A DNA stretch of 64,000 bases from Candidatus Gugararchaeum adminiculabundum (GCA_902384795.1 CABMDC010000004.1:1002-65001), one strand, 5' to 3'. Counted from the stretch's first letter, positions 2,589-37,189 are shown. Program-made: numbers and translations. The notes: a model not told the origin generated them from the sequence alone.

Positions 2589-3674
2589 TTGAGCGTGGAA
2601 TTAAGCCCAAAAAAGCTTTTCGTCATTTTTGCCCTGTTTTCGCTAATCTTCGCCTCGGGCTGCAGCACCGGGGTCAACGGCGAACGGACAAAACAGGATT
2701 TCTACTCATTTGATACTGGCGCGAACGCGGGCGAAGCGGCGGGCACGGGCACTACCGCGGAAACCTGCGCAGCGCCAACCGAGACGCCCCCCCCGGACGT
2801 CTGCTCATCCTATTCCTCGCTTCTCGGCCGCGCGTCCATGAATTTCCAGGGAATGGATTATGTCGACCAAACCGTTTACCACGTACAAATAGACGACCCA
2901 AGCGGTGCCAGTTCAGAGAGCATAACCCAGCAGGTGATTACCTACACCTCGATCAATGGGATGAAAAGTTTGACAACCCTTCCCAGCGGGACCTATGAAG
3001 TCTACTATGACCCACTAACTTACGCCCCCGATGCGTTGTCCTGCGACGAGACTACCGGGGCAACGGTGACCGACGGCGGAGATGTTTTCATTTGCGGGCC
3101 GGGGAACAGCTGGGTTTCAAATCCAAACATCGCCAATGATGTGGTGAACGGGGCCACGGGCTGGAAAAATAACAATTTGGTCCCTGTAGGATTCAAGGAA
3201 TACGGCCCGCAGCTCGGAGACCTGGGCAGATCCTCGGACGCGCCCACCTGCAACACCCTTGATGGAAACAACGGGAAATACTGCACGCACTGCATCGGGA
3301 CGGCCTGCGCCCCGTGCGCCAAGGATTCGCCGCCTTTCAATTCCCTGAAATGCGCAAGCGAGTGCGTTGATTTCTATGGATCAGCGCTCTATTCGGGGCA
3401 GGACGAGCAGGACCTCGGTGTCGCGAAAGAGACTGAAAAGGCGACAATCTACACCGGCGGCCCTGTGCAAGTGAAAGACTGGTACCAGGCGGAATTTTCC
3501 AAAACAACCGCCAATGGCGGGACAATAACAATGACAAGCGATTCCAATTACACGATGCAGGAAACGCCGATCCCCGAGGATTTCTTCAAACCGGAGAAAA
3601 GCAAATGCGGCGGCGTGCCCATGAAATGCACTCTTATCTGCGAATCCTCTGGAATGAAGTGCGGCTACACTTAA
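2589..3674 (+). CDS. secreted Cys-rich putative lipoprotein, function unknown
   Basis: 361-aa ORF with TTG start. The N-terminus KKLFVIFALFSLIFASGCSTG is a signal peptide with a lipobox-like SGC. There are many Cys residues, including the clusters CTHCIGTACAPCAKD and KCGGVPMKCTLICESSGMKCGY. I recognise no family motif. Confidence 0.7.
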   Translation: MSVELSPKKLFVIFALFSLIFASGCSTGVNGERTKQDFYSFDTGANAGEAAGTGTTAETCAAPTETPPPDVCSSYSSLLGRASMNFQGMDYVDQTVYHVQIDDPSGASSESITQQVITYTSINGMKSLTTLPSGTYEVYYDPLTYAPDALSCDETTGATVTDGGDVFICGPGNSWVSNPNIANDVVNGATGWKNNNLVPVGFKEYGPQLGDLGRSSDAPTCNTLDGNNGKYCTHCIGTACAPCAKDSPPFNSLKCASECVDFYGSALYSGQDEQDLGVAKETEKATIYTGGPVQVKDWYQAEFSKTTANGGTITMTSDSNYTMQETPIPEDFFKPEKSKCGGVPMKCTLICESSGMKCGYT

Positions 3675-4046: not shown

Positions 4047-7000
4047 TTATAATGGATTTAGTAATTGCGGGCTGAATGAATCGCGTGAGCTCTTCACTTA
4101 CACCCCAATCCTATCAAACCCGTCTGCTACGGGCTCCAATATCGCCTCGTTTTGAGATTTGCTTCGACCTTAGATGCTTTCAGGTCTTATCAAATAGCGC
4201 GTAGCTGCCCAGCAGTGCCTTGTTAGACAACTGGTAAACCAGAGGCGCCGATCCCAAGTTCCTCTCGTACTCATGGGACCTTACTCTCAAGCGACAACAC
4301 TCCTAAGAGATACTACCGAACTGTCTCGCGACGTTCTGAACCCAGCTCGTGTAAGTCTTTAATGGATGAACAACCCAACCATTGGTGGCTCCTGCACCAC
4401 CAGGATGACTTAAGCCGACAGCGATGTACCAAACCGCGGGGTCGATGGGTATTTGAGTAAAACTCTCCCACGCCCAACAGCGAAAACACGAACTGCTAGA
4501 TTCCATTTAGTATCCGCACGCTAGTCCATCGACTGGCCTAGCATGCGCTAGAAATCTGCCTATGAATTCCTTATGCAGAACTTATTGAGGAAGAATTTCT
4601 AACTAAACGAAAACGATAGCAGTTCGTACGCAAATAATTTAGGGAGAGATTTATCTCTCGCCCGCGACGAGCCTGTTACCCCCGGGGTAGCTTGTCTGAC
4701 AGCTTGGACCCTCATCAAAAGGGATACCAAGGTTCGTTAAGCCCGACTTTCGTCTCTGCATTCAACGCTCTTATGAATACAGTCAGTCTAGCATTTGTCT
4801 TTTTCCCTTAACCTCGCATTTCTGACGCGAGTAAGCTAAACATTGGGCATCCTTGTTTCCTTATCGAGGATGTACCGCCCCAGCCAAACTATCCATCTGC
4901 CGCTGTCCCTAATTAGGTAAGCAGTGTATCAACCAGTGATTGGTGTTACAAAATCGCCTATTTGCACCCCGAAAGATGCAACATAGCGGCTCCCAATTAC
5001 GCTCCGCATTGATCAAGACACTACAACAACAGACTATAGTAAAGCTCCACGGGGTCTTCGTTTCCCCTTAGAAGTCCTCCGCATATTCACGGAGTAGTGA
5101 GTTCACCAGGTCCTAGACAGGGACAGTGGGAGGCTCGTTATGCCATTCATGCAAGCCGCCAATTAAGCGGCGAGGTATTACGCTACCTTAAGAGGGTCAG
5201 AGTTACCCCCGCTCTTTGCCGGCGCTTAGTTCGGTTGAAACCGAGTTTGACGTACCGGTAGTGAGCAGGCATCGACCACTATACTAAGCCTTACGACTTT
5301 GCAGTGATCTGTGTTTTTGATAAACAGTCGACCTCCCCTTGATACTGAGACCTGCAGTTCTTGTAAACCGCAGGCATAGCTTGTCCCGAAGTTACGCTAC
5401 TATTTTGCCGAGTTCCCTTGCCTAGGTCACCCTGCTACGCCTTGGCTTTCTCTGCCAGCAACACCTGTACTGGTTCTAGGTACGATCTTGTGGAATCGGA
5501 TTAGTTCTCTTTTCGTGTACCCTTTTTACATATTTTTTATTGCGCAATTTCCCGCGCGCAACCCGCGTTACGTTATCCCCGCCCAAAATAAGGCAGAGAA
5601 GTTTTTCCGTTAACGCTTTTTGCTTTAGCAAAAAGGGTTATTTCACGGGCTCCGGGAATCAATCGAAGTATTGCTACCCCTCCAGTTGTTATCCTGCTTC
5701 TCTTCATAACGAATCTCCACAGGACTGCAAAAGAAGAACAACCCTTGCGAATTGCTCGACCTATCCCCAAGCGTCAAGAACTAAACTTGTCTTGCGACGT
5801 CTATCCACAAGGTGCGGGAATTTTAACCCGCTTCCCTTTCATGCAATGGTGATTGGCCTTGCATTTAGGATCGACTTACTCTTGGCTGACAAACGTTGCC
5901 AAGAAAACCGTGTGCTTACGGCGTTCAGGATTCTCACCTGAATTAGATGTTACTAACACCAGGATCTTCATAACAAGCCAGTCCACACAACCTTACGGCT
6001 GTGCTTCTGCCCGGCCCGTTCGCCTCCCTACCAGATGACTGCCCGAAGGCAGTCCTCTAGGGTTTCGGTTTCTGACTTAGTCCCGTACATCTTCAGAGCC
6101 AGCAAACTCGACTGGTCCGCTATTACGCGTTGTTTAAAGGATGGCTGCTTCTGAGCCTACCTTCCAGCTGTTTTTGCTTGGAGACTCCTTCATATTAACA
6201 CTTAGTCAGACATTAGGGACCTTAACCCTAGCCATGGTCGTTCCCATGCAACAACACTAGCTTACCCAGCGTCGTCGACTCCCGTCTTCTACGACGTGTA
6301 TAGATTCGGAGTTTGACAACGAGGTGACACCTTTCGATGCCGCTCCCCGTGATCAGTGCTCTACCCCACACACTATCTCAGACGAGGCTATCCTAGGAGA
6401 TACTTCGGAAGGAACCCGCTATTGCCATGTTCGATTGGACTTTCACCCCTAAACGCACGTCACCCGAGCAGATATACTAGCAACGGTAGCGGTCCTCCAC
6501 CAGCTGAAAAGCCGGCTTCGACCTGCGCACGTATAGATCACAATGGCTTCGGGTCTGGCAATAGTGACTAATCGCTTTTTCAAACGACGCGCCTCGCTTA
6601 TCACTGCGCGCAATCGCTTTCGCTTCGCATTCCTGCTCGCCACTATCGCAAACTCCCTGGCCCTTGACTCAAGAAGGACGATGTAATATTGGTAGTCCCG
6701 CATCGCTTCCACCCTTGCGAATGGTCGCTTCTGCAGGCGTTCATTCCTTTCACACTACATCAACCTGTAGCCTTTCAGTTTCAGGCACTTTTAACCCCCC
6801 TGTTCGGGGTTCTTTTCAGCTTTCGCTCGCGCTACTAATACGCTATCGGTCTCAGATCTGTATTTAGAGTTGCAAGTCGATACTCGCATCTTCACGCCCC
6901 ATACTCGAGGGACCTTACTCGCATCGCTCCCTTCCATCTAACCTTCACCTACGAGGCTATCACTCTCTCTGGCACAACTTTCCAGTTGCTTCAGTTCAAT

Positions 7001-7280
7001 TAAATGGATAGTTGGAGCGCCCACATCTACGGCACATTGCTGTGCCGCATTCAGTTTGCTCTGTGCTGCTTTCAGTCACCCTTACTTACAGCATCCCTAT
7101 TGGTTTCTTTTCCTCCCGTTACTAAGATGTTTCATTTCACGGGGTATCTGCCCATTACTGGGTATTCGGGAACCTCCGGTTCAACGGCTGCATGCGCCTA
7201 GCCGGAGCTTTTCGCAGCTTGCCACGCCCTTGCTTTTATCTGAGCCAAGCCATCCTCTGAAAGGCTTCGTAACAAAACAC
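4047..7280 (-). rRNA. rrl: 23S rRNA (interrupted by a ~208-nt insertion; ends approximate to about 15 nt)
   Basis: Reverse complement contains the sarcin-ricin loop AGTACGAGAGGAAC (4258-4271). It also contains CTGAAAGCATCTAAG, ACGAGCTGGGTTCAGAACGTCGCGAGACAG, CCCCGGGGGTAACAGGCT, GAAGACCCCGTGGAGCTTTACTATAG and GGAACTCGGCAAAATAG, plus the 5' block GGATGGCTTGGCTCAG near 7255. About 3026 nt remain without the insertion. Confidence 0.95.
4447..4654 (-). other. ORF-less ~208-nt insertion in 23S helix 89 (intron or expansion segment)
   Basis: The conserved sequence runs GGGTAACAGGCTCGTCGCGGGCGAGAG, then the insertion, then ATCGACCCCGCGGTTTGGTACATCGCTGTCGGC. In E. coli (recalled from memory) only about 5 nt (UUCAU) occupy this gap. 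The insertion ends are complementary (CTCTCCC near the 5' end, GGGAGAG near the 3' end). No ORF is present. Confidence 0.7.
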
Positions 7281-7348
7281 TAATTCAAGTTATTATTTAT
7301 AGTTGACCTTTTTATGACTCAACTAATATTCCGTGTTCTGCAACCACA
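7281..7348 (-). other. 23S processing stem, 5' half
   Basis: Complementary to 4003-4042 (see that feature). Lies in the 16S-23S spacer immediately upstream of the 23S 5' end. Confidence 0.65.
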
Positions 7349-7497
7349 CTTCTGTCCACATGATTGAATGCGAAAGCATAGTCCGCACCCAACGCGAGAA
7401 AAAATCTAAAAAAATAATTCCGAAAATTTTCATTTTCGAAAAAATATTTCCGAGATATTTTTCCCGCCACGCTCGGAATAAAATTCCGAAACGTTTC

Positions 7498-7534
7498 GAG
7501 TCTTCAAGAGATTAATAGAGTTGTACGAATATTC
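7498..7534 (-). other. 16S processing stem, 3' half
   Basis: GAGTCTTCAAG (7498-7508) and GTTGTACGAAT (7520-7530) are perfectly complementary to 9777-9787 and 9755-9765. The two 11-bp helices are separated by an 11-nt internal loop on each side. Confidence 0.75.
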
Positions 7535-10130: not shown

Positions 10131-11489
10131 GTGATTGATTTGGGCAACACAGATATTTTTGTAAGACCTTTGGGCAAGCTTCCGAACAACAAGGCCAACC
10201 AGAACAAAATTTCACAAGTTCTTGATTTGGCTTTCGAAAAAATGAGGGGAACAGGAAACAACAGAATTGACAGCGCGGTTCTTGTTGACACGCTCTTCAG
10301 TTCGGACAAAAACAAAAGAATGCCCATAAGGTCCGGGAAAGACCGGGAAGAGGCCGTAGCAAAGATCGTTTCTCTCAGCGATTCCCACCGCGCAAAACAA
10401 TCATCCACGCAAATTTCCAGTTCCAGTTCTACTCAAACTACGCAAGCCACGCAAACTAAGCAAACTACTCGCGCTGAATCCGTTAGTGACTTTCTGAATG
10501 TTTTCGTTGATTCAGAGGGCACAATCATAGTTGAAAACAAATATAAAGACTCGATTGATTTGTCGAAAGTGAGCATCGGCAGAGACGGCCCAATTTGCCG
10601 TTCCATGGATTTACTCAACAAATGGCTCGAACCGGGCCAGAAATATTACTCCGATCGGAAATGCCACCAAAAACCAGCTTATGGCTCAACAAGACTGCAG
10701 GTTGGATACATCAATGGTTCCGAGCTTGTCACTCCCAAGGAAATTCCTCTTTTCAAATTCGAAAAAGAAGTTGACGGAGTTTTGAAATTCACAGTTCAGG
10801 CAGAAGGAAAACTGGTGAGGGTATTTGCAGAAAACATCAGCAACCAGGCTGAAGTGGAAGCCGATATGACTCTCCGCCTCAGGGGGCAGTTTTCCTCTCG
10901 TCCAAAGGAGATTCCGCAGTACGGTGATTTTTTCCCAAAAGGAAGAGGACAGGTTATCGCGGCACAATTTGAAAACGAACCAGGCATGGAAGAAATTTCT
11001 ATTTTCATTGAAGCGGCGGGGCCTGCCCGCAGAGACAGGACTGAGCTTATCCGGCCTTCCCTGATCAGAGACAGACTAGTTTCCATAAATTTCAACAGCG
11101 ATGAAGACCGCGTTGGCTTCCAAAAGCAGGTGCCGCAGGTTTCAGGAATCGCTGCGGAATCTTTGATACCTGTTGAGCTTGGGAATATGGCTGAAGCAGT
11201 AATCGGCTCAATAAAGGTTTTTGTTTTCAACAGCGGTCGTTTCGTTCAAGTTGAAGCTAACAACCCACATGAATTTGCAGTCGAGTTTGAAATGACTTTT
11301 GACCGGGAAAACGGCGACCGTCCGTATACCGAGCGCAAAGTGTTAACTTCCGGAGCGCGGGAAGAAGTCTACGCCATGCCAAAAGCCATCTCCCCCAACC
11401 TAGAGGTAAAATTTGGCAAGGTCGTCAAATATTATAATAACACGATCGTTGTCGATGAAGGCGGGCAAAGGCGTTTCAAGCTCCTCTAA
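10131..11489 (+). CDS. hypothetical protein (orphan)
   Basis: 452-aa ORF. GTG 10131 lies inside the SD-like GGTGAT, so TTG 10140 may be the true start. It has a Ser/Thr/Gln-rich linker (SSTQISSSSSTQTTQATQTKQTT), no TM helix and no recognisable motif. Confidence 0.6.
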   Translation: MIDLGNTDIFVRPLGKLPNNKANQNKISQVLDLAFEKMRGTGNNRIDSAVLVDTLFSSDKNKRMPIRSGKDREEAVAKIVSLSDSHRAKQSSTQISSSSSTQTTQATQTKQTTRAESVSDFLNVFVDSEGTIIVENKYKDSIDLSKVSIGRDGPICRSMDLLNKWLEPGQKYYSDRKCHQKPAYGSTRLQVGYINGSELVTPKEIPLFKFEKEVDGVLKFTVQAEGKLVRVFAENISNQAEVEADMTLRLRGQFSSRPKEIPQYGDFFPKGRGQVIAAQFENEPGMEEISIFIEAAGPARRDRTELIRPSLIRDRLVSINFNSDEDRVGFQKQVPQVSGIAAESLIPVELGNMAEAVIGSIKVFVFNSGRFVQVEANNPHEFAVEFEMTFDRENGDRPYTERKVLTSGAREEVYAMPKAISPNLEVKFGKVVKYYNNTIVVDEGGQRRFKLL

Positions 11490-29617: not shown

Positions 29618-30028
29618 CTATACTCCCCTGGCAGGCGCACGCGCGCCGCAGGCCTCGCAAACCAGCGTATGTATCCTGTTTCCTTCCTCGATCAGGTTTG
29701 TGTCAGGCTTGCCGCACTCCTTGCACAGCACATAGGTTTTTGCGTAGTTTTCGAGCTTTTCATTAAGCATTTTATCCCCGAACTTCCCCTGAAGCATGAG
29801 CCTCTGCCCCTGTACCGAGCCCGGAGCCGCCAGCTCCTTGTACAGGTATTTGGCGACCTGGTTCGGGTCCCTGCGCAGCTTCTGGCACACAAAATCGAAA
29901 TTCTTCACTATGGTCTTGGTTCCCTGGATAAACGAGTCCACTGCCGGCATCTCGAACCTTTCCTGGGTCAGCACCTTTTTCGGCAGGTTCGCATATGCCT
30001 TATCCAGTAATTTTTCGTAATCATCCAA
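29618..30028 (-). CDS. eif2b: translation initiation factor aIF-2 beta subunit
   Basis: YEKLLDKAY, FEMP, and a C-terminal zinc ribbon CKECGKPDT...CEACGA, 136 aa. Confidence 0.9.
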   Translation of the reverse strand: MDDYEKLLDKAYANLPKKVLTQERFEMPAVDSFIQGTKTIVKNFDFVCQKLRRDPNQVAKYLYKELAAPGSVQGQRLMLQGKFGDKMLNEKLENYAKTYVLCKECGKPDTNLIEEGNRIHTLVCEACGARAPARGV

Positions 30029-30169
30029 ATAATCACTCTCTAAAGTTACTAAGTTTGATGCGACAAATCTTATAAGGCGTTCTAAAGACGCGTTTGCGCT
30101 GGAACGGCGAATGCATCCTGGCTCAAAGCGTTAAGTTTATATATGCGAAGTTGTAGAATATAATAGTTT

Positions 30170-31450
30170 GTGGATTATTGCAGTGTGGTGTTCGCTACGT
30201 CAAAATGGCTTCTGTCTTGCAGGAATTGCGGGGAAAAATACCCGGAAAAGTCAATTGAAAATTTCCACGGCAAATGCGGGCGCGCTGGATTCGTGGACGT
30301 AGTTTTGGAAGAAATGGAAAGAAAAGTGCATCGGAATCTGCCTTCCATCTTCAAATTCAAGGATTACATGCCTATTCTTGACGAGCATGTCCCGCTCCTT
30401 CAGGGCGCTGAAACAATCCCGGACGTGCCGATTTTCTACTCCCAACAACTGTCGGACGAGCTAGGCATCCACGTTTATTTCGCAGATATGATCCAAAATC
30501 CCACTGGCTCATGGAAAGATTTTGACGGATTCATAACCATGTATCGGGTGTACCAAAACAATGTGCCTGAAATCGCCGCATCTTCTTCCGGAAACGCCGG
30601 GACTGCTATGGCGCGTGCCGCAACCTTGTTCGGAGCCACCATAAGAAAAACGGATCCCAGCTTCAAGGGACCAGTGCTCCACCTGTTTCTGCCCGAATCC
30701 GGCAGAACCGCGGTGGGGTATCAAAAAGGGTTTTTTCATCCTGACCACACTCGGGTAACTTTCGTCCATGGGGATAACGATGAAGCCCTGCAAGCCGCCC
30801 AGAAGTTTTCCGGAGAGTCCGGTGTTCCGCTGATCGGAGGTTTTTTCAATTATGTAAAGCGGGAGGGCACAGCCAAGTTCCTCGGTTTGTGCTACCGTTT
30901 CAATTTCATGCCCAAAAATGACCCAGTGCAGTGGTACGCGCAAGCGGTATCCAGCGGAAACGGGATATACGCGTTCCAAAAAGCCAGTCTAGACGGTGAA
31001 TTTGAGTGCCCGAAGATTCTTGGCGTGCAGGCGGATGCGTGCTCGCCCATGGCCAATGCTTGGAAAGAAAAACATCTGGGCCCGTTGGAAGACAGGCACT
31101 CTCCGAAAGAAATACCCCCCACCCCGTTTCTCAGAATATTGAAGACAAAAAAACCGGCCTCTTATCCATACCTCGCAGAAATAGTTCGTGAAACAAACGG
31201 AGCTTTTGAGAGTGTTACCAGCATTGATTTCGGTTGTGAAATACACAGCGCTCTCAAAAAATTGCACAGCGAACCTTATTACACCGAACTCAGGGAAGCC
31301 GGCGGGCCCATGCCCGGGCTTGAGTCTGCAACCGCCCTTGCCGGAGTAATAAAATCCGTGCATAACGGAACAATAAGGCCGCAGGAGCGCGTTTTAGTAG
31401 TTTCAAGCGGCGCAGCAAAAGCAGGGGACCTAAGGGCGGAATGGTTCTAG
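30170..31450 (+). CDS. PLP-dependent enzyme, threonine-synthase-like paralogue
   Basis: N-terminal CRNCGEKYPE...HGKC, NPTGSWKD (PLP Lys) and SSGNAGTAMA. GTG start about 25 nt after TTTATATA (leaderless). Confidence 0.7.
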   Translation: MDYCSVVFATSKWLLSCRNCGEKYPEKSIENFHGKCGRAGFVDVVLEEMERKVHRNLPSIFKFKDYMPILDEHVPLLQGAETIPDVPIFYSQQLSDELGIHVYFADMIQNPTGSWKDFDGFITMYRVYQNNVPEIAASSSGNAGTAMARAATLFGATIRKTDPSFKGPVLHLFLPESGRTAVGYQKGFFHPDHTRVTFVHGDNDEALQAAQKFSGESGVPLIGGFFNYVKREGTAKFLGLCYRFNFMPKNDPVQWYAQAVSSGNGIYAFQKASLDGEFECPKILGVQADACSPMANAWKEKHLGPLEDRHSPKEIPPTPFLRILKTKKPASYPYLAEIVRETNGAFESVTSIDFGCEIHSALKKLHSEPYYTELREAGGPMPGLESATALAGVIKSVHNGTIRPQERVLVVSSGAAKAGDLRAEWF

Positions 31451-31527
31451 AGCCCAACTAATTTCGCAATAAGCAGCGAAAGCATCCCGAAAAAGCACAA
31501 TGGCGGAAGCGCAGGCAGGAATAATCT
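31447..31527 (-). pseudogene. relic copy of the presenilin-like gene 3' end (27 codons including stop)
   Basis: Encodes HRLFLPALPPLCFFGMLSLLIAKLVGL-stop, versus NRLFLPALPPLCFFGMLSLLIAKLAGF-stop at 33041-33121. Nine codons differ, all synonymously, across the 23 shared residues. There is no start codon, and an in-frame TAG lies upstream (31600-31602). Confidence 0.75.
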
Positions 31528-31622
31528 GTGTCCAACAAACGGGAGCTGCGGATAGGATACAAATAAATAGGTCCAGAGGCAAATACATATATCCTCGAAC
31601 TAAGCGAATAGAAAACGGACGA

Positions 31623-33038
31623 ATGGAAAGGAATGTGATGATTATGGCTGAAACCCAGAAGAAGGCTGAAAAAACTAATTTTGAAGAGATGATCGCAAAA
31701 AAGGCGTTCGTAGAATTCCAGCCCATGAGCGGAGGCCCGAAGATGATCGGCTATGTTGTCGGAAGGGATGCTGACAAAAAGCTTATTGTGAAAATCAAGG
31801 AACATAACAAGCTGCTGAGACTGTTCAAGAAAACCAAGCACGAATACCGGGTCGAGGATAAACTGGTACGGCCATTGGGGGCGCCGGTTGAAGAAAAACC
31901 AAAGCAGGAAACGCCCAAAGCGCCAGAAGAAAAGCCAAAGCAGCCCGTAGCCGGAAAGCAATGGACAAATCCTGAAAAACTGATTTTGGGCGCCTATGCG
32001 CTCGCGGTAAAGAATCTGAGCGATGGTGAAAAATCCGCTTTCTGCAGGTTCGTTGCAAAAACACAGGAGACCGGCGATAATCGCGGAGCGCTTGAAAAGC
32101 TGTATGTCGGATGGCAGGCAGCGGTGTCCGCAAAAGTTCAGGGCGGAGGCAAAAAATTCCCGGATTTCTCAAACGCCTGGATCGCTTTCACCAAGACCAG
32201 CGAATACGCCACAATGAAGAAGAAAATCAGCGCAAAGTGGTTTGGGCAGGGAATGGTCTATGCGAAAAAAGGCGATTACGACCATGCAATCAGGGAATTC
32301 GACAAAGTTCTTTCACTATACCCTAACCACGCCATTACGATTTACAGCAAGGCCGTTGCATTGTACAAAAAAGGCGACTACAAGAAAGCCAATGAGCTGC
32401 TTGCAAAAGCCAAAAAGCTGGACCCGGCAAAGTTCGGGGACAAAGCGTTCACAAATTCAGGGCTCCAAAAGGCGCCTCCTATGGATTCAACGGAGATGGA
32501 GCGGCCAGAGACCAAGGGAGAGCGGTTTTACAACTACGGCCGCTATCTTGAAAGCCAGGGCCGCTATAAGGATGCCGTTAAAAACTACCAGAAGGCTGCA
32601 AAATCCGGGGAACCGGAAATTGCCAAAAAAGCCACCAAGGCCGCAAGCGACCTTGAAAAGAAATTGAATGCGCCAGTTACGCCCAGGCAGCTTCTTGAAC
32701 AGGGCCATAAGTATGAAAACGAAGGCGCCTATGGGGTCGCAATGGACAAATACAGACTGGCTGCAAAATCCGGGGATCCGGAAATTGCCAAAAAAGCCAC
32801 CAAGGCCGCAAGCGACCTTGACAAGCTAATGCATGCGAATGTTAAGCCCAGGGGAGCGCCTATGCGGATGGATGCAACTGCCTGGTACTCCCGGGCAAGA
32901 CTGGAGTATAAAGCCGGGCATTATCAAAAGGCAAAAGAAGCCTATGACCAAGTCATAAAACTGGACAAAAACAACGAGTTTTCCAACGCGCGCAGTGAAC
33001 GGGCCGCCATTATCCGTGAAATGAGCAAACAAAAATAA
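31623..33038 (+). CDS. TPR/Sel1-like repeat protein
   Basis: TPR-like segments are present (GMVYAKKGDYDHAIREFDKVLSLYPNH, KAVALYKKGDYKKANELLAKAKKLDP). There is an internal near-identical 55-codon duplication. The start was set to ATG 31623 (TATA-like CATATAT about 30 nt upstream). The track ORF begins at 31500, inside the duplicated segment. Confidence 0.7.
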   Translation: MERNVMIMAETQKKAEKTNFEEMIAKKAFVEFQPMSGGPKMIGYVVGRDADKKLIVKIKEHNKLLRLFKKTKHEYRVEDKLVRPLGAPVEEKPKQETPKAPEEKPKQPVAGKQWTNPEKLILGAYALAVKNLSDGEKSAFCRFVAKTQETGDNRGALEKLYVGWQAAVSAKVQGGGKKFPDFSNAWIAFTKTSEYATMKKKISAKWFGQGMVYAKKGDYDHAIREFDKVLSLYPNHAITIYSKAVALYKKGDYKKANELLAKAKKLDPAKFGDKAFTNSGLQKAPPMDSTEMERPETKGERFYNYGRYLESQGRYKDAVKNYQKAAKSGEPEIAKKATKAASDLEKKLNAPVTPRQLLEQGHKYENEGAYGVAMDKYRLAAKSGDPEIAKKATKAASDLDKLMHANVKPRGAPMRMDATAWYSRARLEYKAGHYQKAKEAYDQVIKLDKNNEFSNARSERAAIIREMSKQK

Positions 33039-33040
33039 AA

Positions 33041-34027
33041 CTAAAAGCCTGCGAGTTTTGCAATAAGCAGCGAAAGCATTCCAAAGAAGCACAATGGCGG
33101 AAGCGCTGGCAAAAATAAGCGATTTTTCAGTACCACATAGAGCACGACCCCCAGCCCGAAAGTTGTGCCAATAATCACTGCAATGGAATCCACCCACCCG
33201 CCCCATTTTAGCACCGCAACCGCAAGCATCAATGGGATTGCCATATCACCTGTTCCGAGTTCAAGCGCAGTTCTCCTGTGTTCCGGAGGAAGCGACTGCA
33301 AATGCTCATGGACTTGCTGTTGCTGGTCCTCGGTCAGGTTCTTCAGTTTCTTGGGCTCGATTTCTTCTTCAGCGCTCACCGAGAAAGACAGGTTCCTTTT
33401 TCCCAATTCCTTGGCCATGGTGATCATGTGCCTTGTGTAATAGACCGCAAGCACGTCATAGACCGAAAGGGCCGAGATGAAAACAATCGCCGGCACGACA
33501 TCCAGCGAGAATCCGAAAATAGCGCCAACCCCGGCGCTCGCAATTATCGCAACAAGATTCTTCGCCTTCTTGAAAAAGAATTTCGTGATTGCGAGCAACG
33601 CGGCGACTGCGAACGCGAGTTCGCTCGAGTTCGGCACATTGAAGCTGCGCAAAAGCGCGAACCCGATCACATACCCCGAGATCATCACAATCATGACTTC
33701 CATCAGTTTGAATGCCATGACCCCTTTGTAGAATTTTATTACTATGAGCATGATTGCCGCGCCTACCAGCACGTAGGCGATGAAAAATATGACATTTGCC
33801 AAATCCCCGGCATTTCCGGTTGGCGCAACGCTCAGTTCCTTGAACTCCTGGATCTCCGGTGCCTTGTTCGTGAGCTGGGCGCCTGCGTACAGGCCGAGGG
33901 CCTGGGTCAGCAGGAACATGATTAGAATTGTTGCCATTATGCGCTCGTGCGGAATTTCGACATGGTGCTCCTGGTGAAGATGGTCGTGCACATCGCGCCT
34001 TTGCTCGTATTCGTCAGCCATTGGCAA
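33041..34027 (-). CDS. presenilin/signal-peptide-peptidase-like intramembrane aspartyl protease (A22 family)
   Basis: Multi-TM protein with YD (LSVYDVLAVYY), GxGD (LGTGDMAIP) and PAL (LPALPPL) in the canonical order. Confidence 0.7.
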   Translation of the reverse strand: MPMADEYEQRRDVHDHLHQEHHVEIPHERIMATILIMFLLTQALGLYAGAQLTNKAPEIQEFKELSVAPTGNAGDLANVIFFIAYVLVGAAIMLIVIKFYKGVMAFKLMEVMIVMISGYVIGFALLRSFNVPNSSELAFAVAALLAITKFFFKKAKNLVAIIASAGVGAIFGFSLDVVPAIVFISALSVYDVLAVYYTRHMITMAKELGKRNLSFSVSAEEEIEPKKLKNLTEDQQQQVHEHLQSLPPEHRRTALELGTGDMAIPLMLAVAVLKWGGWVDSIAVIIGTTFGLGVVLYVVLKNRLFLPALPPLCFFGMLSLLIAKLAGF

Positions 34028-34050: not shown

Positions 34051-34890
34051 TCAGTTTTCGTCCTGCTGACCTAATCTCGCTTTCATCTCTTTGATGAATT
34101 TATCCTCGTTGTTACCCGTATTTGGCAAGTTTTCGCTTAGATTGAAATTTCCAGACCCTATCAAGTAAAAAGTTTTGTCTACAGTATACGCATCTTTTTC
34201 AACTGCTTCACTCATTTCTATTATTGATTTGTAAACTTCATAATCTTCCTCTGAATCAGATAATCCTAATTGATAAAATATTTTCTTTAGATGTCTGTCT
34301 GGTTTTGGATAATTTTTGTAACCAGAATCCTTAAGAAAATCACAAGCCAAGGCAAAGCCAAAACCATTGATTTCCTTACTCAGCAGCATAGGTAAAGCTG
34401 CTTTAGTATATTTATTGAATGAAAAATTATTTACAAAACTGTCAAATTCATTAATGTCCACAAAACTTGATATGAATCTGCTCCCCGAAATGATACCCTT
34501 AGAAAACTGCTTCCATGTATTTAACGGACTATCCGCGTTGTTTATTTCAAAAGTGCTCCCGAATCTCTCGAATAATTGTTCTGAACTTGGATAGTGTTCA
34601 AGAATCTTTTTCGGCTCAAAACCATAAAGTATCTCAGTCAACTCTTTTTCTCTCTCGTCAAATTTTATAATGTTGCGCGCTCCGCCTTTATTTAACAACG
34701 ATTCCATCAACCGTTTATTAAGCTCAAATAAGTGATTAAACTTTTGACGGACCGTAAGGTGTTCTTCTAGGATCTTCTCATTTAATTCCGGGTGTTCTGC
34801 CACAATCTTTCTCAGAAACTGTTCGGCATATCCGTAAACCAATCGGTATCTCTCGTTTCTATTCATTGTTTTACCCTCCAAATCTTGCAC
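34051..34890 (-). CDS. hypothetical protein in AT-rich island (weak helix-hairpin-helix-like motif)
   Basis: 279 aa, visibly AT-richer than both flanks. INGFGFALACDFLKDSGYKNYPKPDRHLKKIF loosely resembles HhH-GPD glycosylase motifs. Not verified. Confidence 0.55.
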   Translation of the reverse strand: MQDLEGKTMNRNERYRLVYGYAEQFLRKIVAEHPELNEKILEEHLTVRQKFNHLFELNKRLMESLLNKGGARNIIKFDEREKELTEILYGFEPKKILEHYPSSEQLFERFGSTFEINNADSPLNTWKQFSKGIISGSRFISSFVDINEFDSFVNNFSFNKYTKAALPMLLSKEINGFGFALACDFLKDSGYKNYPKPDRHLKKIFYQLGLSDSEEDYEVYKSIIEMSEAVEKDAYTVDKTFYLIGSGNFNLSENLPNTGNNEDKFIKEMKARLGQQDEN

Positions 34891-34918
34891 TTTTTCAATC
34901 TGTTTAATCCTGATTTAG

Positions 34919-35080
34919 TTACCTTTTGATCTGAACGTTATCCGTTCGGTTAGAACCATGGCAGTTCCAACAACCTCCATTCAAATTGCGCCAACATGCT
35001 TCACACGCCACTAATGCACACTTCCTGCATACTCTAAAATATTCTGCGCTACTGTTACATCTCTGGCATATTTCGCTCAT
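34919..35080 (-). CDS. 53-aa Cys-rich zinc-ribbon/RING-like small protein
   Basis: Hand-found, below the track's length cut-off. Sequence: MSEICQRCNSSAEYFRVCRKCALVACEACWRNLNGGCWNCHGSNRTDNVQIKR, with four CxxC pairs plus a His. GGTGAT SD lies 5 nt upstream of the ATG. The ORF lies 18 nt downstream of the MCM stop. Confidence 0.55.
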   Translation of the reverse strand: MSEICQRCNSSAEYFRVCRKCALVACEACWRNLNGGCWNCHGSNRTDNVQIKR

Positions 35081-35098: not shown

Positions 35099-37189
35099 TT
35101 ACTCTCCGTATCCGCGCACCAGTTTCACAAAATTAGGCTTGGGCTTGTACAGCTCCCCCTTGTGGATCAGGTCATCCACAATCCTGTTCGCCTTTACCGA
35201 GTCAATTCCGTAATCCCCGCACTTTTCAATCACCTGGGCGATGGAAACCTCGTCAAACTCCTTTGCAAGCTCGCGGATAATTCCGAGAATCGTGTTGATT
35301 TTGTCCACCTGCGATTTCGGCGTGCCCGTGGCAACAATATCCCCGTCAATCCTGTTTGTTTCCTTGTCCACCATGATGGTGTGCAGCATGAAATTGAGCA
35401 GGCCGATTGAGCGCTCGGCATCAACCGATTCCACTCTTTCAGACAATCTCATCTTCGCGCTCGCTTCCGCCAGCCTGATCAACCCTTCAATCGCCCTCGG
35501 AGTAATCGGAACCGCTCCCTGCTGCGCGCCGATTTTTCTCAAGTCAACATAATAATCGCGAATCCTGGTTTTCGCCTCCTGGGTGAGCACAGGCCTGATG
35601 TGCTTGCGCGCATAGGCAATATACTGTCTCAGGAATGCCGGGTTCATTTCACCCACGTCCCCCTGCCAGTCGCTTTTTGAAAGCGTCCTTCCCTCTGCCG
35701 CGCGCTTGGATGCGCTTTCGTGTGATGCGAGTATGTGCTCGGCCATCATGGTGTCCCTTTCGGCATCCAGCACGTCGCGGATTACGAAAATCAAATCAAA
35801 CCTTGAAAGCAATGTTGGCGGAATATTGAACTGCTCGGATGGCAATTTGTACGGGTCGAATCTTCCGTATTCAGGGTTTGCTGCCGCAAGAATGCTCGTC
35901 CTTGCCCTGAAGGTTGCCACAATTCCTGCCTTGGCAACCGAAACGGTTTGCGATTCCATAACTTCGTGCATTGAGGCAGTGTCCTCTTCGCCGATTTTGT
36001 CAAACTCGTCAACGCATGCCAGGCCTCCGCTTGCAAGCACCAGCGCGCCTGCCTTCAATGTCCAGCCCCCGTCGCTCAACGGATCCTTTTCGGCTGATGC
36101 GGTCAAACCTGCTGCGCTCACTGATTTTCCTGAAACATAAACACTTTTTGGTGAAATGTCCCGGGTATACTGCAAAATCCTGGTTTTAGCGGCACCCGGA
36201 TCGCCGACCAATAGAACGTGAATATCATGCCTGATTCTTGACCCGTCTGGCAAAACCTTGTCATGGGTTCCTCCGAAAAGCTGGAGCGCGATTGCCTGCT
36301 TCACTTCCTCATGCCCATAGATTCCAGGGGCAACTGATTTGGAAATAATGTCAAACAGGCGCGGGCTTTTGGACAATTCAATGATTTTCCTTTCCTCTTC
36401 TGCCGAAAGCTCCAAATCCTCAAAATCATTCTGCTCTTTCTGTAAATAGTTCACTTCCAGGTATTTCGAATAGACATTGGGATTCTTTCCTTTTTCAGGG
36501 GGTTTCAGCCTCAGGATGCCGGAGAGAATCACCCTGTCCCCAGGTACATAGGTGTTCACCAGATCATCTTCGATCCATAATTCAAGATGGCCGGTTGGCG
36601 CTCCGCTCTTCGCCCTTTCCAAAAGCTCCTGCACCTCGGCCCGCTGAAGGTCAACAAAATAGGATTCCTCCTCGACCATTTTGAGCGAGCGGCGCTTGCA
36701 GTCATCGCAGATGACCGGCGCGATCGCGTTCTTGGTCATTGCAATTTTGTGCTTTGCATCGCACAATTGGCAGACATAAACGGCAATCCTTACTTTTGGC
36801 TTTACCTCGGCGCGCTTGGTCACGATCCCCTCAACGCGGATTAGTTTCTCGATGTGGTGCGAGCCGACGCTTTCAATCAGCAGGCCGGAATAGGGGAGGT
36901 TCATGAAGCGCACATGCGGCTCGAATTCCTCCTTCTCCTTCCGGTCCAGCAGGTTGACCGTAATGTTCAGTTTCTTTATCGCTTCCTTTGCGGCATCGAT
37001 GATTTTGTCAGGGCTTTTCAGGAGCTCGTCCGCAAGCTCCATGTTGAATTTTTCCAAATCCAGGTAGTCGACGATAAGGCCCTTTTTCCTCGGGTAATTG
37101 AGCGCCAGCTCGTCAAGCCCTTTTTTGCAATATTTCTCCAGGAATTCCTCGAAGACCGATTCTACCTGTGAAACTTCTTCCATTGCCAT
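35099..37189 (-). CDS. mcm: MCM replicative helicase
   Basis: Zinc motif CQLCDAKHK...CDDCKRR, Walker A GDPGAAKT, Walker B CVDEFDK, arginine finger SRFDLIF, 696 aa, no intein. Confidence 0.97.
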   Translation of the reverse strand: MAMEEVSQVESVFEEFLEKYCKKGLDELALNYPRKKGLIVDYLDLEKFNMELADELLKSPDKIIDAAKEAIKKLNITVNLLDRKEKEEFEPHVRFMNLPYSGLLIESVGSHHIEKLIRVEGIVTKRAEVKPKVRIAVYVCQLCDAKHKIAMTKNAIAPVICDDCKRRSLKMVEEESYFVDLQRAEVQELLERAKSGAPTGHLELWIEDDLVNTYVPGDRVILSGILRLKPPEKGKNPNVYSKYLEVNYLQKEQNDFEDLELSAEEERKIIELSKSPRLFDIISKSVAPGIYGHEEVKQAIALQLFGGTHDKVLPDGSRIRHDIHVLLVGDPGAAKTRILQYTRDISPKSVYVSGKSVSAAGLTASAEKDPLSDGGWTLKAGALVLASGGLACVDEFDKIGEEDTASMHEVMESQTVSVAKAGIVATFRARTSILAAANPEYGRFDPYKLPSEQFNIPPTLLSRFDLIFVIRDVLDAERDTMMAEHILASHESASKRAAEGRTLSKSDWQGDVGEMNPAFLRQYIAYARKHIRPVLTQEAKTRIRDYYVDLRKIGAQQGAVPITPRAIEGLIRLAEASAKMRLSERVESVDAERSIGLLNFMLHTIMVDKETNRIDGDIVATGTPKSQVDKINTILGIIRELAKEFDEVSIAQVIEKCGDYGIDSVKANRIVDDLIHKGELYKPKPNFVKLVRGYGE

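Follow-up and report, generated by a model that had tools for sequence, protein, structure and literature searches.

A duplicated protease gene end flanking a TPR gene in a Micrarchaeota chromosome suggests recent joining of DNA from two related lineages

How did the last codons of one protease gene come to stand twice in an archaeal chromosome, once at the working end of the gene and once, as an orphan, on the far side of a neighbouring gene? The question is raised by a locus of Candidatus Gugararchaeum adminiculabundum (GCA_902384795.1, contig CABMDC010000004.1). The stretch of DNA that was analysed, hereafter called the window, is 64,000 nt long (contig positions 1002-65001), and coordinates are counted from its first nucleotide. 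The protease gene (33041..34027, minus strand) encodes a presenilin/SPP-family intramembrane aspartyl protease, named PSH. Its live 3′ end, made up of the last 26 codons and the stop codon, will be referred to as copy B (33041..33121, minus strand). The orphan, copy A (31447..31527, minus strand), corresponds to the same 26 codons and stop of the PSH gene of what appears to be a second lineage, and is displaced and non-functional. A gene for a TPR protein (31638..33038, plus strand) is the sole gene in the 1.6 kb between the two copies. The answer that is well supported, under either of the two mechanisms weighed below, is that DNA of two related lineages was recently joined by recombination at the PSH tail.

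The 328-aa PSH protein is matched by Pfam PF06550 (E 4e-21, above the family cutoff) and by NCBIfam NF041679 PSH (E 1.5e-29, below the curated cutoff). Judged by its sequence, it is predicted to be of the presenilin/SPP (A22) type, with the YD, GxGD and C-terminal PAL motifs present as Y188-D189, G256-x-G258-D259 and P305-A306-L307. These motifs are invariant in 42 homologs, and the PAL motif lies within the repeated tail, as an earlier note on this DNA had stated. All 180 of the PSH homologs with a source name come from Micrarchaeota, and the window also carries archaeal MCM, aIF2beta, eIF1A and RIO genes; it belongs to the genome of a Micrarchaeota (DPANN) archaeon. The closest relative of PSH among 5.8 billion proteins is only 53% identical. 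The exact PSH protein of the window (P0001, 326 aa) had no record in the contig index searched, and a degenerate DNA pattern for the tail peptide found no match in metagenome or viral contigs.

Translated on the minus strand, copy A reads RLFLPALPPLCFFGMLSLLIAKLVGL and copy B reads RLFLPALPPLCFFGMLSLLIAKLAGF, each followed by a stop. Both contain the peptide RLFLPALPPLCFFGMLSLLIAKL, then three further residues and a TAG stop in the same register. The copies are identical at 65 of 81 nt in an ungapped alignment with an offset of 1594. Over the first 23 codons there are nine that differ, all of them synonymously, whereas the final three residues (VGL in copy A versus AGF in copy B) hold a V/A and an L/F replacement around a G codon that differs synonymously. 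In total there are 16 nucleotide differences in 78 nt, falling in 10 synonymous and 2 non-synonymous codons. The match is beyond chance (blastn self-hit E 6e-16, tblastn E 5e-13), and the pair is the only repeat of this type in the window. The longest identical runs between the copies, two of 20 nt each, are compatible with a strand-exchange core. Similarity breaks off sharply at either side, with a single sharp homology boundary at 31527/31528, and no terminal inverted repeats were seen at the ends of the insert.

Copy B completes the PSH open reading frame (ORF). The reading frame of copy A is closed by a stop 24 codons upstream, no ATG, GTG or TTG lies between, and within the copy itself no start codon occurs before codon 10. 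Its stop (CTA on the plus strand, 31447-31449) overlaps the TAG stop (31448-31450) of a convergent thrC-like gene (30170..31450, plus strand). The earlier note had described the shared peptide and register, the nine synonymous codon differences, the divergence of the last three residues, the working state of copy B, the start-less and truncated state of copy A and the overlapping stops, and each of these descriptions was confirmed. No further PSH homology was found upstream of copy A by sensitive local alignments of DNA and protein, the scores of which did not exceed those of shuffled controls, and a longer degraded PSH remnant at this place was thereby rejected. A third remnant of the PSH tail beside aIF2beta was also looked for, and none was found.

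The differences between the two copies carry a clear signature of selection. The Nei-Gojobori method counts about 12 differences at 20 synonymous sites and 4 (path-averaged) at 58 non-synonymous sites, that is, a synonymous divergence (dS) of about 1.16 and a non-synonymous divergence (dN) of about 0.07 for the whole tail (Fisher p 3e-6; dN/dS about 0.06), and a dS of 0.85 with a dN of 0.04 for the first 23 codons. In 200,000 simulations with 16 random substitutions each in copy B, the frequency of outcomes with no more than two replaced codons was 5e-6. The earlier note had held that the divergence of the copies arose under selection on the protein, not by decay in place, and had proposed a dN/dS comparison of the 81-nt copies; the values obtained, far below the neutral expectation, agree with it. 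A direct repeat does flank the insert, as would be expected of a long target-site or tandem duplication in place, followed by neutral decay of the unused copy. Such decay, however, would make about 9 of the 16 differences replacements, against the 2 observed (P = 5e-6), and a divergence of 20% with an intact frame and no indels is unlike decay. Together with the lack of terminal inverted repeats and of a transposase this makes in-place duplication scarcely credible, and it is rejected on the strength of the simulation and of the dN/dS estimate. A transposon or casposon with target-site duplication was likewise rejected, in view of the length of the repeat (81 nt) at 80% identity, the selection signature and the same two absences.

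The last 26 codons of real PSH orthologs from different species provided a calibration. Orthologous tails with 0-2 amino acid changes and 76-88% nucleotide identity belong to proteins that are 82-91% identical, and the comparison of copies A and B (79.5% nucleotide identity, 2 amino acid changes) falls within this range. Moreover, the KLVGL ending of copy A is a normal C-terminus in the PSH family. Based on the selection signature, this calibration and the family-type ending, copy A looks like the end of a once functional PSH gene from a related but distinct lineage, the protein of which would have been roughly 82-91% identical to that of the window. Over the first 23 codons no replacement is found among about 51 non-synonymous sites, which suggests that the decay of copy A since its pseudogenisation amounts to at most about 0.06 substitutions per site, versus a dS near 1 between the copies. 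The absence of replacements thus indicates that the joining of the tails was recent relative to the split of the two lineages, and that copy A probably became a pseudogene recently.

To place the locus in its family context, loci encoding PSH relatives were fetched, 38 from GTDB species representatives and 68 from JGI metagenomes. Across the phylum (about 100 Micrarchaeota loci) the gene order MCM>PSH>aIF2beta>eIF1A>RIO, all on one strand, is conserved. In the window this backbone flanks the locus on both sides, with the family-wide upstream neighbour of PSH, MCM, at 35099..37189 (minus strand) and the family-wide downstream neighbour, aIF2beta, at 29618..30028 (minus strand; synteny by tblastn). 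In at least 20 loci aIF2beta begins 30-71 nt past the PSH stop, and in one large clade a small convergent DUF1858 gene lies between the two. Other loci have unrelated cargo of 0.75-4.4 kb there, with genes for sugar-nucleotide enzymes or an aquaporin and with unknown ORFs, and the diverse cargo of the gap as a whole ranges from 0.3 to 4.4 kb. The gap of the window measures 3.0 kb (30029-33040) and holds the thrC-like and TPR genes, on the strand opposite to PSH, with copy A between them; both genes are absent from all other PSH loci compared. On this comparative sequence evidence the gap between PSH and aIF2beta is a variable hot spot, and both genes are accessory. The earlier note had suggested that the junction between the thrC-like and PSH genes was ancestral. 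This does not hold for the family: since aIF2beta is the gene that usually comes next to PSH on its strand, downstream, the thrC-like gene would itself be an accessory insertion, and its junction with PSH can have been the original one only in one recent lineage.

The same loci bear on a paralog as the source of copy A. A second PSH gene may once have stood between the thrC-like and TPR genes and later have been deleted except for its last 81 nt, which would likewise give an all-synonymous pattern, and one metagenome-assembled genome (MAG) has PSH on two contigs. In this MAG (MFD04408.bin.1.57) the contigs L021 (9.8 kb) and L022 (213 kb) both show the MCM-PSH-aIF2beta-eIF1A-RIO order, and their PSH genes show 100% identity, both of the protein and over the last 78 nt, pointing to what is probably redundancy of assembly or binning and not a real duplication. 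A second PSH gene or PAL motif within 6-10 kb was found in 0 of about 97 related loci. Furthermore, the gene would have to be duplicated, both copies kept for a long time in a reduced genome, and one of them then deleted exactly as far as the TPR promoter; the short orphan tails that recur elsewhere would still be left unexplained. We therefore regard this explanation as improbable.

These recurrent orphan tails were found when the PSH tail of every locus was searched for in the rest of that locus. In the Micrarchaeia MAG L032, a second copy of the final 34 nt of PSH, stop included, lies at 11427-11460 with 33 of 34 nt identical (45-48 nt if one indel is allowed). The insert (locus span 10829-11460) is a cassette of 553 nt placed directly after the PSH stop, with a TATA-like box, a Fic/DOC toxin gene (PF02661, E 3e-8) and an overlapping 40-aa ORF, and the distal copy of the tail abuts the convergent DUF1858 gene. 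In the sister species of L032 (L024, L012, L018 and at least 10 more) the site is empty, and the DUF1858 stop sits 14 nt inside the PSH tail. The Fic/DOC cassette with its 40-aa ORF and an orphan tail is also found directly after the PSH stop in L070 (about 2680-3300) and L072 (about 2290-2910), with DOC 77% identical, and in L049 (about 6890-7500), with DOC 67% identical. The orphan tails of these DOC loci are 33-47 nt long and abut the DUF1858 gene, and in the PSH tree the DOC-bearing lineages are scattered among lineages with empty sites. A further locus, L088 (577-1449), has a different cargo directly after the PSH stop, namely a 241-aa ORF without a family match, and then an orphan tail of 33 nt. 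That is, the architecture of the window (live tail, cargo, orphan tail, convergent neighbour) recurs in three DOC lineages and in one lineage with another cargo. Self-comparison of the loci (1.05 Mb) revealed 13 short direct repeats, among which the only gene-end duplications were the PSH tails of the window and of L032. Repeats in L006, L014, L015, L027 and L033 were rejected as gene-tail duplications, being internal protein repeats or promoter-like boxes. Those in L027 (10278-10309/10724-10755) and L033 (18597-18625/19324-19352) are short A/T-rich TATA-like boxes before neighbouring genes, and are probably shared promoter elements.

Recurrence also bears on whether the locus could be an artefact, that is, a metagenome assembly chimera of two co-occurring populations. 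The window lies on a 142-kb contig that very probably belongs to a MAG, its exact proteins were found on that contig only, and there is no independent assembly of it. A graph chimera, however, changes strain at a k-mer common to both and would produce a hybrid gene in place of a duplication, and the junction at 31527/31528 joins sequences without similarity. Since five independent assemblies, made in different projects, share this architecture (L032, L049, L070, L072 and L088), an assembly artefact is very unlikely.

In the orphan tails of the DUF1858 clade, the 18 nt that do not overlap the DUF1858 gene are 78-94% identical among the four lineages, while the third codon positions of PSH in the same lineages are 48-65% identical and the DOC genes 66-81% identical (nucleotides). 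This conservation might suggest that copy A is kept as a functional sequence, whether a recombination site, a terminator or a translated mini-ORF. Yet the late first start codon of the window copy argues against translation, and constraint at the nucleotide level would not yield a synonymous-only pattern; a function of copy A as such is considered exceedingly unlikely.

What, then, joined the two tails? The reading we favour, tentatively and at somewhat less than even confidence, is that a small integrase-less cassette was joined by a crossover within a mimic of the PSH tail, much as with prophage e14 in icd. Copy A would then be the displaced, now dead, original end of the PSH gene, and copy B a replacement brought in along with the TPR gene, the donor being a related Micrarchaeota lineage that had TPR tail-to-tail with PSH. 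The incoming unit of about 1.6 kb would have comprised the TPR promoter, the TPR gene and an approximately 80-nt PSH tail, presumably in a circular or otherwise recombining form. A single crossover of the Campbell type, inside the approximately 80 nt shared by the unit and the chromosomal PSH tail, would give the order PSH body, live tail, TPR, orphan tail and former convergent neighbour (the thrC-like gene), leaving both the PSH reading frame and the 3′ end of the neighbour intact. Because the unit encodes no integrase, the crossover would have to be carried out by a recombinase acting in trans or by homologous recombination of the host. Direct repeats flanking the insert, one of which completes the interrupted gene, are the arrangement of attL and attR sites, and the putative promoter and native codon usage of the cargo are as expected of a closely related donor.

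Several observations weigh against the crossover reading. No integrase, transposase or mobile-element gene occurs in the 1.6-kb unit, in the 8 kb on either side or among 59 window ORFs, and no second copy, circular form, virus or plasmid with the cassette was found. The thrC-like gene with the orphan tail could equally be the incoming piece; thus the proposal in the earlier note that the TPR segment of about 1.6 kb entered with a surrogate end stands as regards joining at the gene end, but not as regards its assumed direction, as either side may be the newcomer. In addition, repeat length and cargo orientation differ among the cases, so that a single fixed attachment (att) site is not demonstrated, and with the nearest PSH at 53% identity no close relative exists to show the empty site of the window.

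The main alternative, homology-facilitated illegitimate recombination, is a real possibility and explains the window equally well. It supposes two diverged lineages with a shared MCM-PSH-aIF2beta backbone and different cargo in the gap, lineage X having the thrC-like gene and lineage Y having TPR. A linear fragment, held by homology on one side in PSH/MCM or in aIF2beta/eIF1A/RIO, would have been joined illegitimately on the other at 31527/31528, with the last 26 codons of the PSH of lineage X left as a scar. The conserved backbone around a variable gap supplies the homology anchors, and the locus has the conserved anchor and the orphaned old 3′ end downstream of the new segment; the native composition of both accessory genes, the lack of a recombinase gene and the one sharp boundary also fit. 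Moreover, the overlap between the PSH tail and its convergent neighbour is 4 nt in the window and 14 nt in the DUF1858 clade, which would act as a selection filter: with a convergent gene abutting or overlapping the PSH stop, no joint outside the PSH tail would survive. Against this alternative, the three or four independent orphan tails are all short (33, about 47 and 81 nt of a PSH gene of about 900 nt), which random joints would rarely give; two different cargoes, the DOC cassette and the L088 ORF, have nearly the same orphan boundary; and the orphan tails of the DUF1858 clade are conserved beyond neutral expectation. Inspection of the PSH genes of the DOC lineages L032, L070 and L049, itself a weak test, revealed no donor tract. 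To our knowledge this kind of recombination has not been demonstrated in archaea, which also counts against it. The short, att-sized tails, the shared orphan boundary and the conservation of the tails are the grounds on which crossover is preferred, none of them being decisive.

A stronger form of the crossover reading, which we consider unlikely but worth stating, would make the 3′ end of PSH a dedicated attachment site of Micrarchaeota for promoter-bearing, integrase-less cassettes of 0.5-1.6 kb. These would pass from lineage to lineage through a recombinase in trans or through host recombination, each bearing a conserved mimic of the PSH tail that serves as its site of recombination. The cargoes so far would, in that equally doubtful scheme, be the TPR protein, the Fic/DOC toxin pair and the unknown ORF.

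When mobile-element functions were searched for, no integrase, transposase or virus-type family, and no Pfam or PHROG hit of the integrase type, came up for the ORFs up to about 8 kb away on each side or for another 44 ORFs of the window. The TPR cassette, the DOC cassette and the tail sequences had no match in viral contigs, the N-terminal module of the TPR protein none among phage records, and the segment 31447-33121 none among plasmid records; a virus or plasmid origin of the cassettes was rejected on these grounds. A defence-system role of the cargo was rejected as well, PADLOC having given nothing significant for the genes of the window.

The closest known counterpart is the e14/icd/icdC system of Escherichia coli K-12 (PMC13626634), in which e14, like phage 21, sits in the 3′ end of icd, the live end comes from the inserted DNA and the displaced end (icdC) is orphaned on its far side. 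We measured the icd tail against icdC over 165 nt and found 12 differences, in 9 synonymous and 2 non-synonymous codons. Both pairs of tails thus differ almost solely synonymously, at 93% identity for icd/icdC versus 80% for the window. The earlier note had seen here the architecture of elements that target gene ends, without an integrase; the icd/icdC pair bears the same signature, and no integrase was found in the window. The two systems differ in that e14 is a 15-kb element of a bacterial host with its own integrase and excisionase (intE, xisE), whereas the window insert measures 1.6 kb, with one TPR gene and no recombinase, in a DPANN archaeon.

Among archaea, 14 of 68 thaumarchaeal integrated mobile genetic elements (iMGE) target the 3′-distal region of protein-coding genes, and crenarchaeal att sites are reported as 29-69 bp (PMC6563490). 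The PSH-tail repeats of 33, about 47 and 81 nt are in or near this range. As in archaeal iMGE, the repeats overlap the 3′ end of a protein gene and empty and occupied sites occur in sister species (L032 versus L024, L012 and L018); the elements themselves are 2.6-98 kb long and defined by an integrase, whereas the PSH cassettes are 0.55-1.6 kb long and have none.

Displaced orphan 3′ ends at bacterial Rhs, contact-dependent inhibition (CDI) and type VI secretion system (T6SS) loci have been attributed to homology-facilitated illegitimate recombination (PMC5361080, PMC3240628). There, as in the window, an upstream anchor is conserved, a new 3′ end with an adjacent gene displaces the old end, and no integrase is involved. 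The displaced ends of these bacterial loci, however, are different toxin domains under diversifying selection, whereas both tails of the window encode the same conserved transmembrane segment with the PAL motif. IMEX elements at dif and integron cassettes also bring small recombinase-less cargo to a defined chromosomal site. It is no more than a likeness: nothing resembling a dif or attC structure, and no IntI, was noticed in the window, where no test aimed at them was made. A surrogate gene end with an orphan tail is therefore known from other systems, and what is new here is the integrase-less mini-cassettes, the hot spot in a DPANN genome and the recurrence with different cargo.

As regards the cargo, the start of the TPR gene was taken from the database gene call (466 aa, P0121), with an alternative start at 31623. 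The protein matches Pfam TPR_2 (E 6e-25), and its N-terminal region of about 200 aa is 59% identical to two Gugararchaeum proteins. Over the first 80 or so residues (31638-31880) it is about 90% identical to VVB66046.1 and VVB66045.1 of Ca. Gugararchaeum adminiculabundum, in contrast to the backbone proteins of the window, which are only 50-60% identical to any relative. VVB66046.1 has TPRs and VVB66045.1 an L,D-transpeptidase domain, their genes being adjacent as judged from the accession numbers. The N-terminus is thus a strongly conserved module carried on variable C-terminal domains, and it matches no Pfam family. Within the TPR gene there is a tandem internal duplication (32549-32852, plus strand) of two 139-nt copies, 165 nt apart and 78% identical, with a 94-nt core that is 89% identical. 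The spacer between the orphan tail and the TPR start (31528..31637, plus strand) has no homology to PSH and contains A/T-rich TATA-like boxes at about 31560-31569 and 31583-31594, which could be the gene's own promoter.

The thrC-like gene encodes a pyridoxal-phosphate (PLP)-dependent enzyme of the threonine/cysteate-synthase family (PF00291, E 5.5e-22), but a divergent one: its NCBIfam matches are far under the cutoffs of all threonine and cysteate synthase models, and its best homolog, 39% identical, is located in an unrelated sugar-biosynthesis cluster. The protein has a Cys-rich N-terminus. Because a strong PALP enzyme (E 6e-84) and a homoserine dehydrogenase are encoded elsewhere in the window, the gene would be an extra PLP enzyme. 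Its guanine-plus-cytosine (GC) content and codon use are native to the window (z -0.4), as are those of the TPR gene (z +0.9). Composition is therefore uninformative as a guide to a foreign gene, and any donor must have been closely related.

On the other side of PSH, the interval towards MCM (34051-35080, minus strand) contains a low-GC gene (0.355 versus a window mean of 0.49) with a weak HhH/Ogg-like Pfam match, and a 53-aa Cys-rich zinc-ribbon ORF. MCM and PSH are adjacent in many related loci, unlike in the window, and the interval looks like a second, compositionally foreign insertion. In L008, L014, L020, L022, L033 and L037 the match to MCM falls into two blocks separated by about 1.5 kb, as expected of an intein, whereas the MCM gene of the window is uninterrupted.

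Little is known of how DPANN archaea, with their tiny genomes, acquire genes. The locus described here is direct sequence evidence that DNA of a distinct but related lineage (synonymous divergence near 1) recently entered a Micrarchaeota chromosome by recombination, at a hot spot that has conserved genes of replication and translation on its flanks, and the scar of this event recurs elsewhere with different cargo. If illegitimate recombination is the true mechanism, this would be among the first documented cases of it in archaea. If the PSH tail is a true attachment site, it would represent a new route of gene exchange in these episymbionts, that is, a cassette-exchange system for DPANN archaea with a logic analogous to that of integrons or IMEX elements, and the orphan PSH tail would be a simple marker of recent acquisitions.

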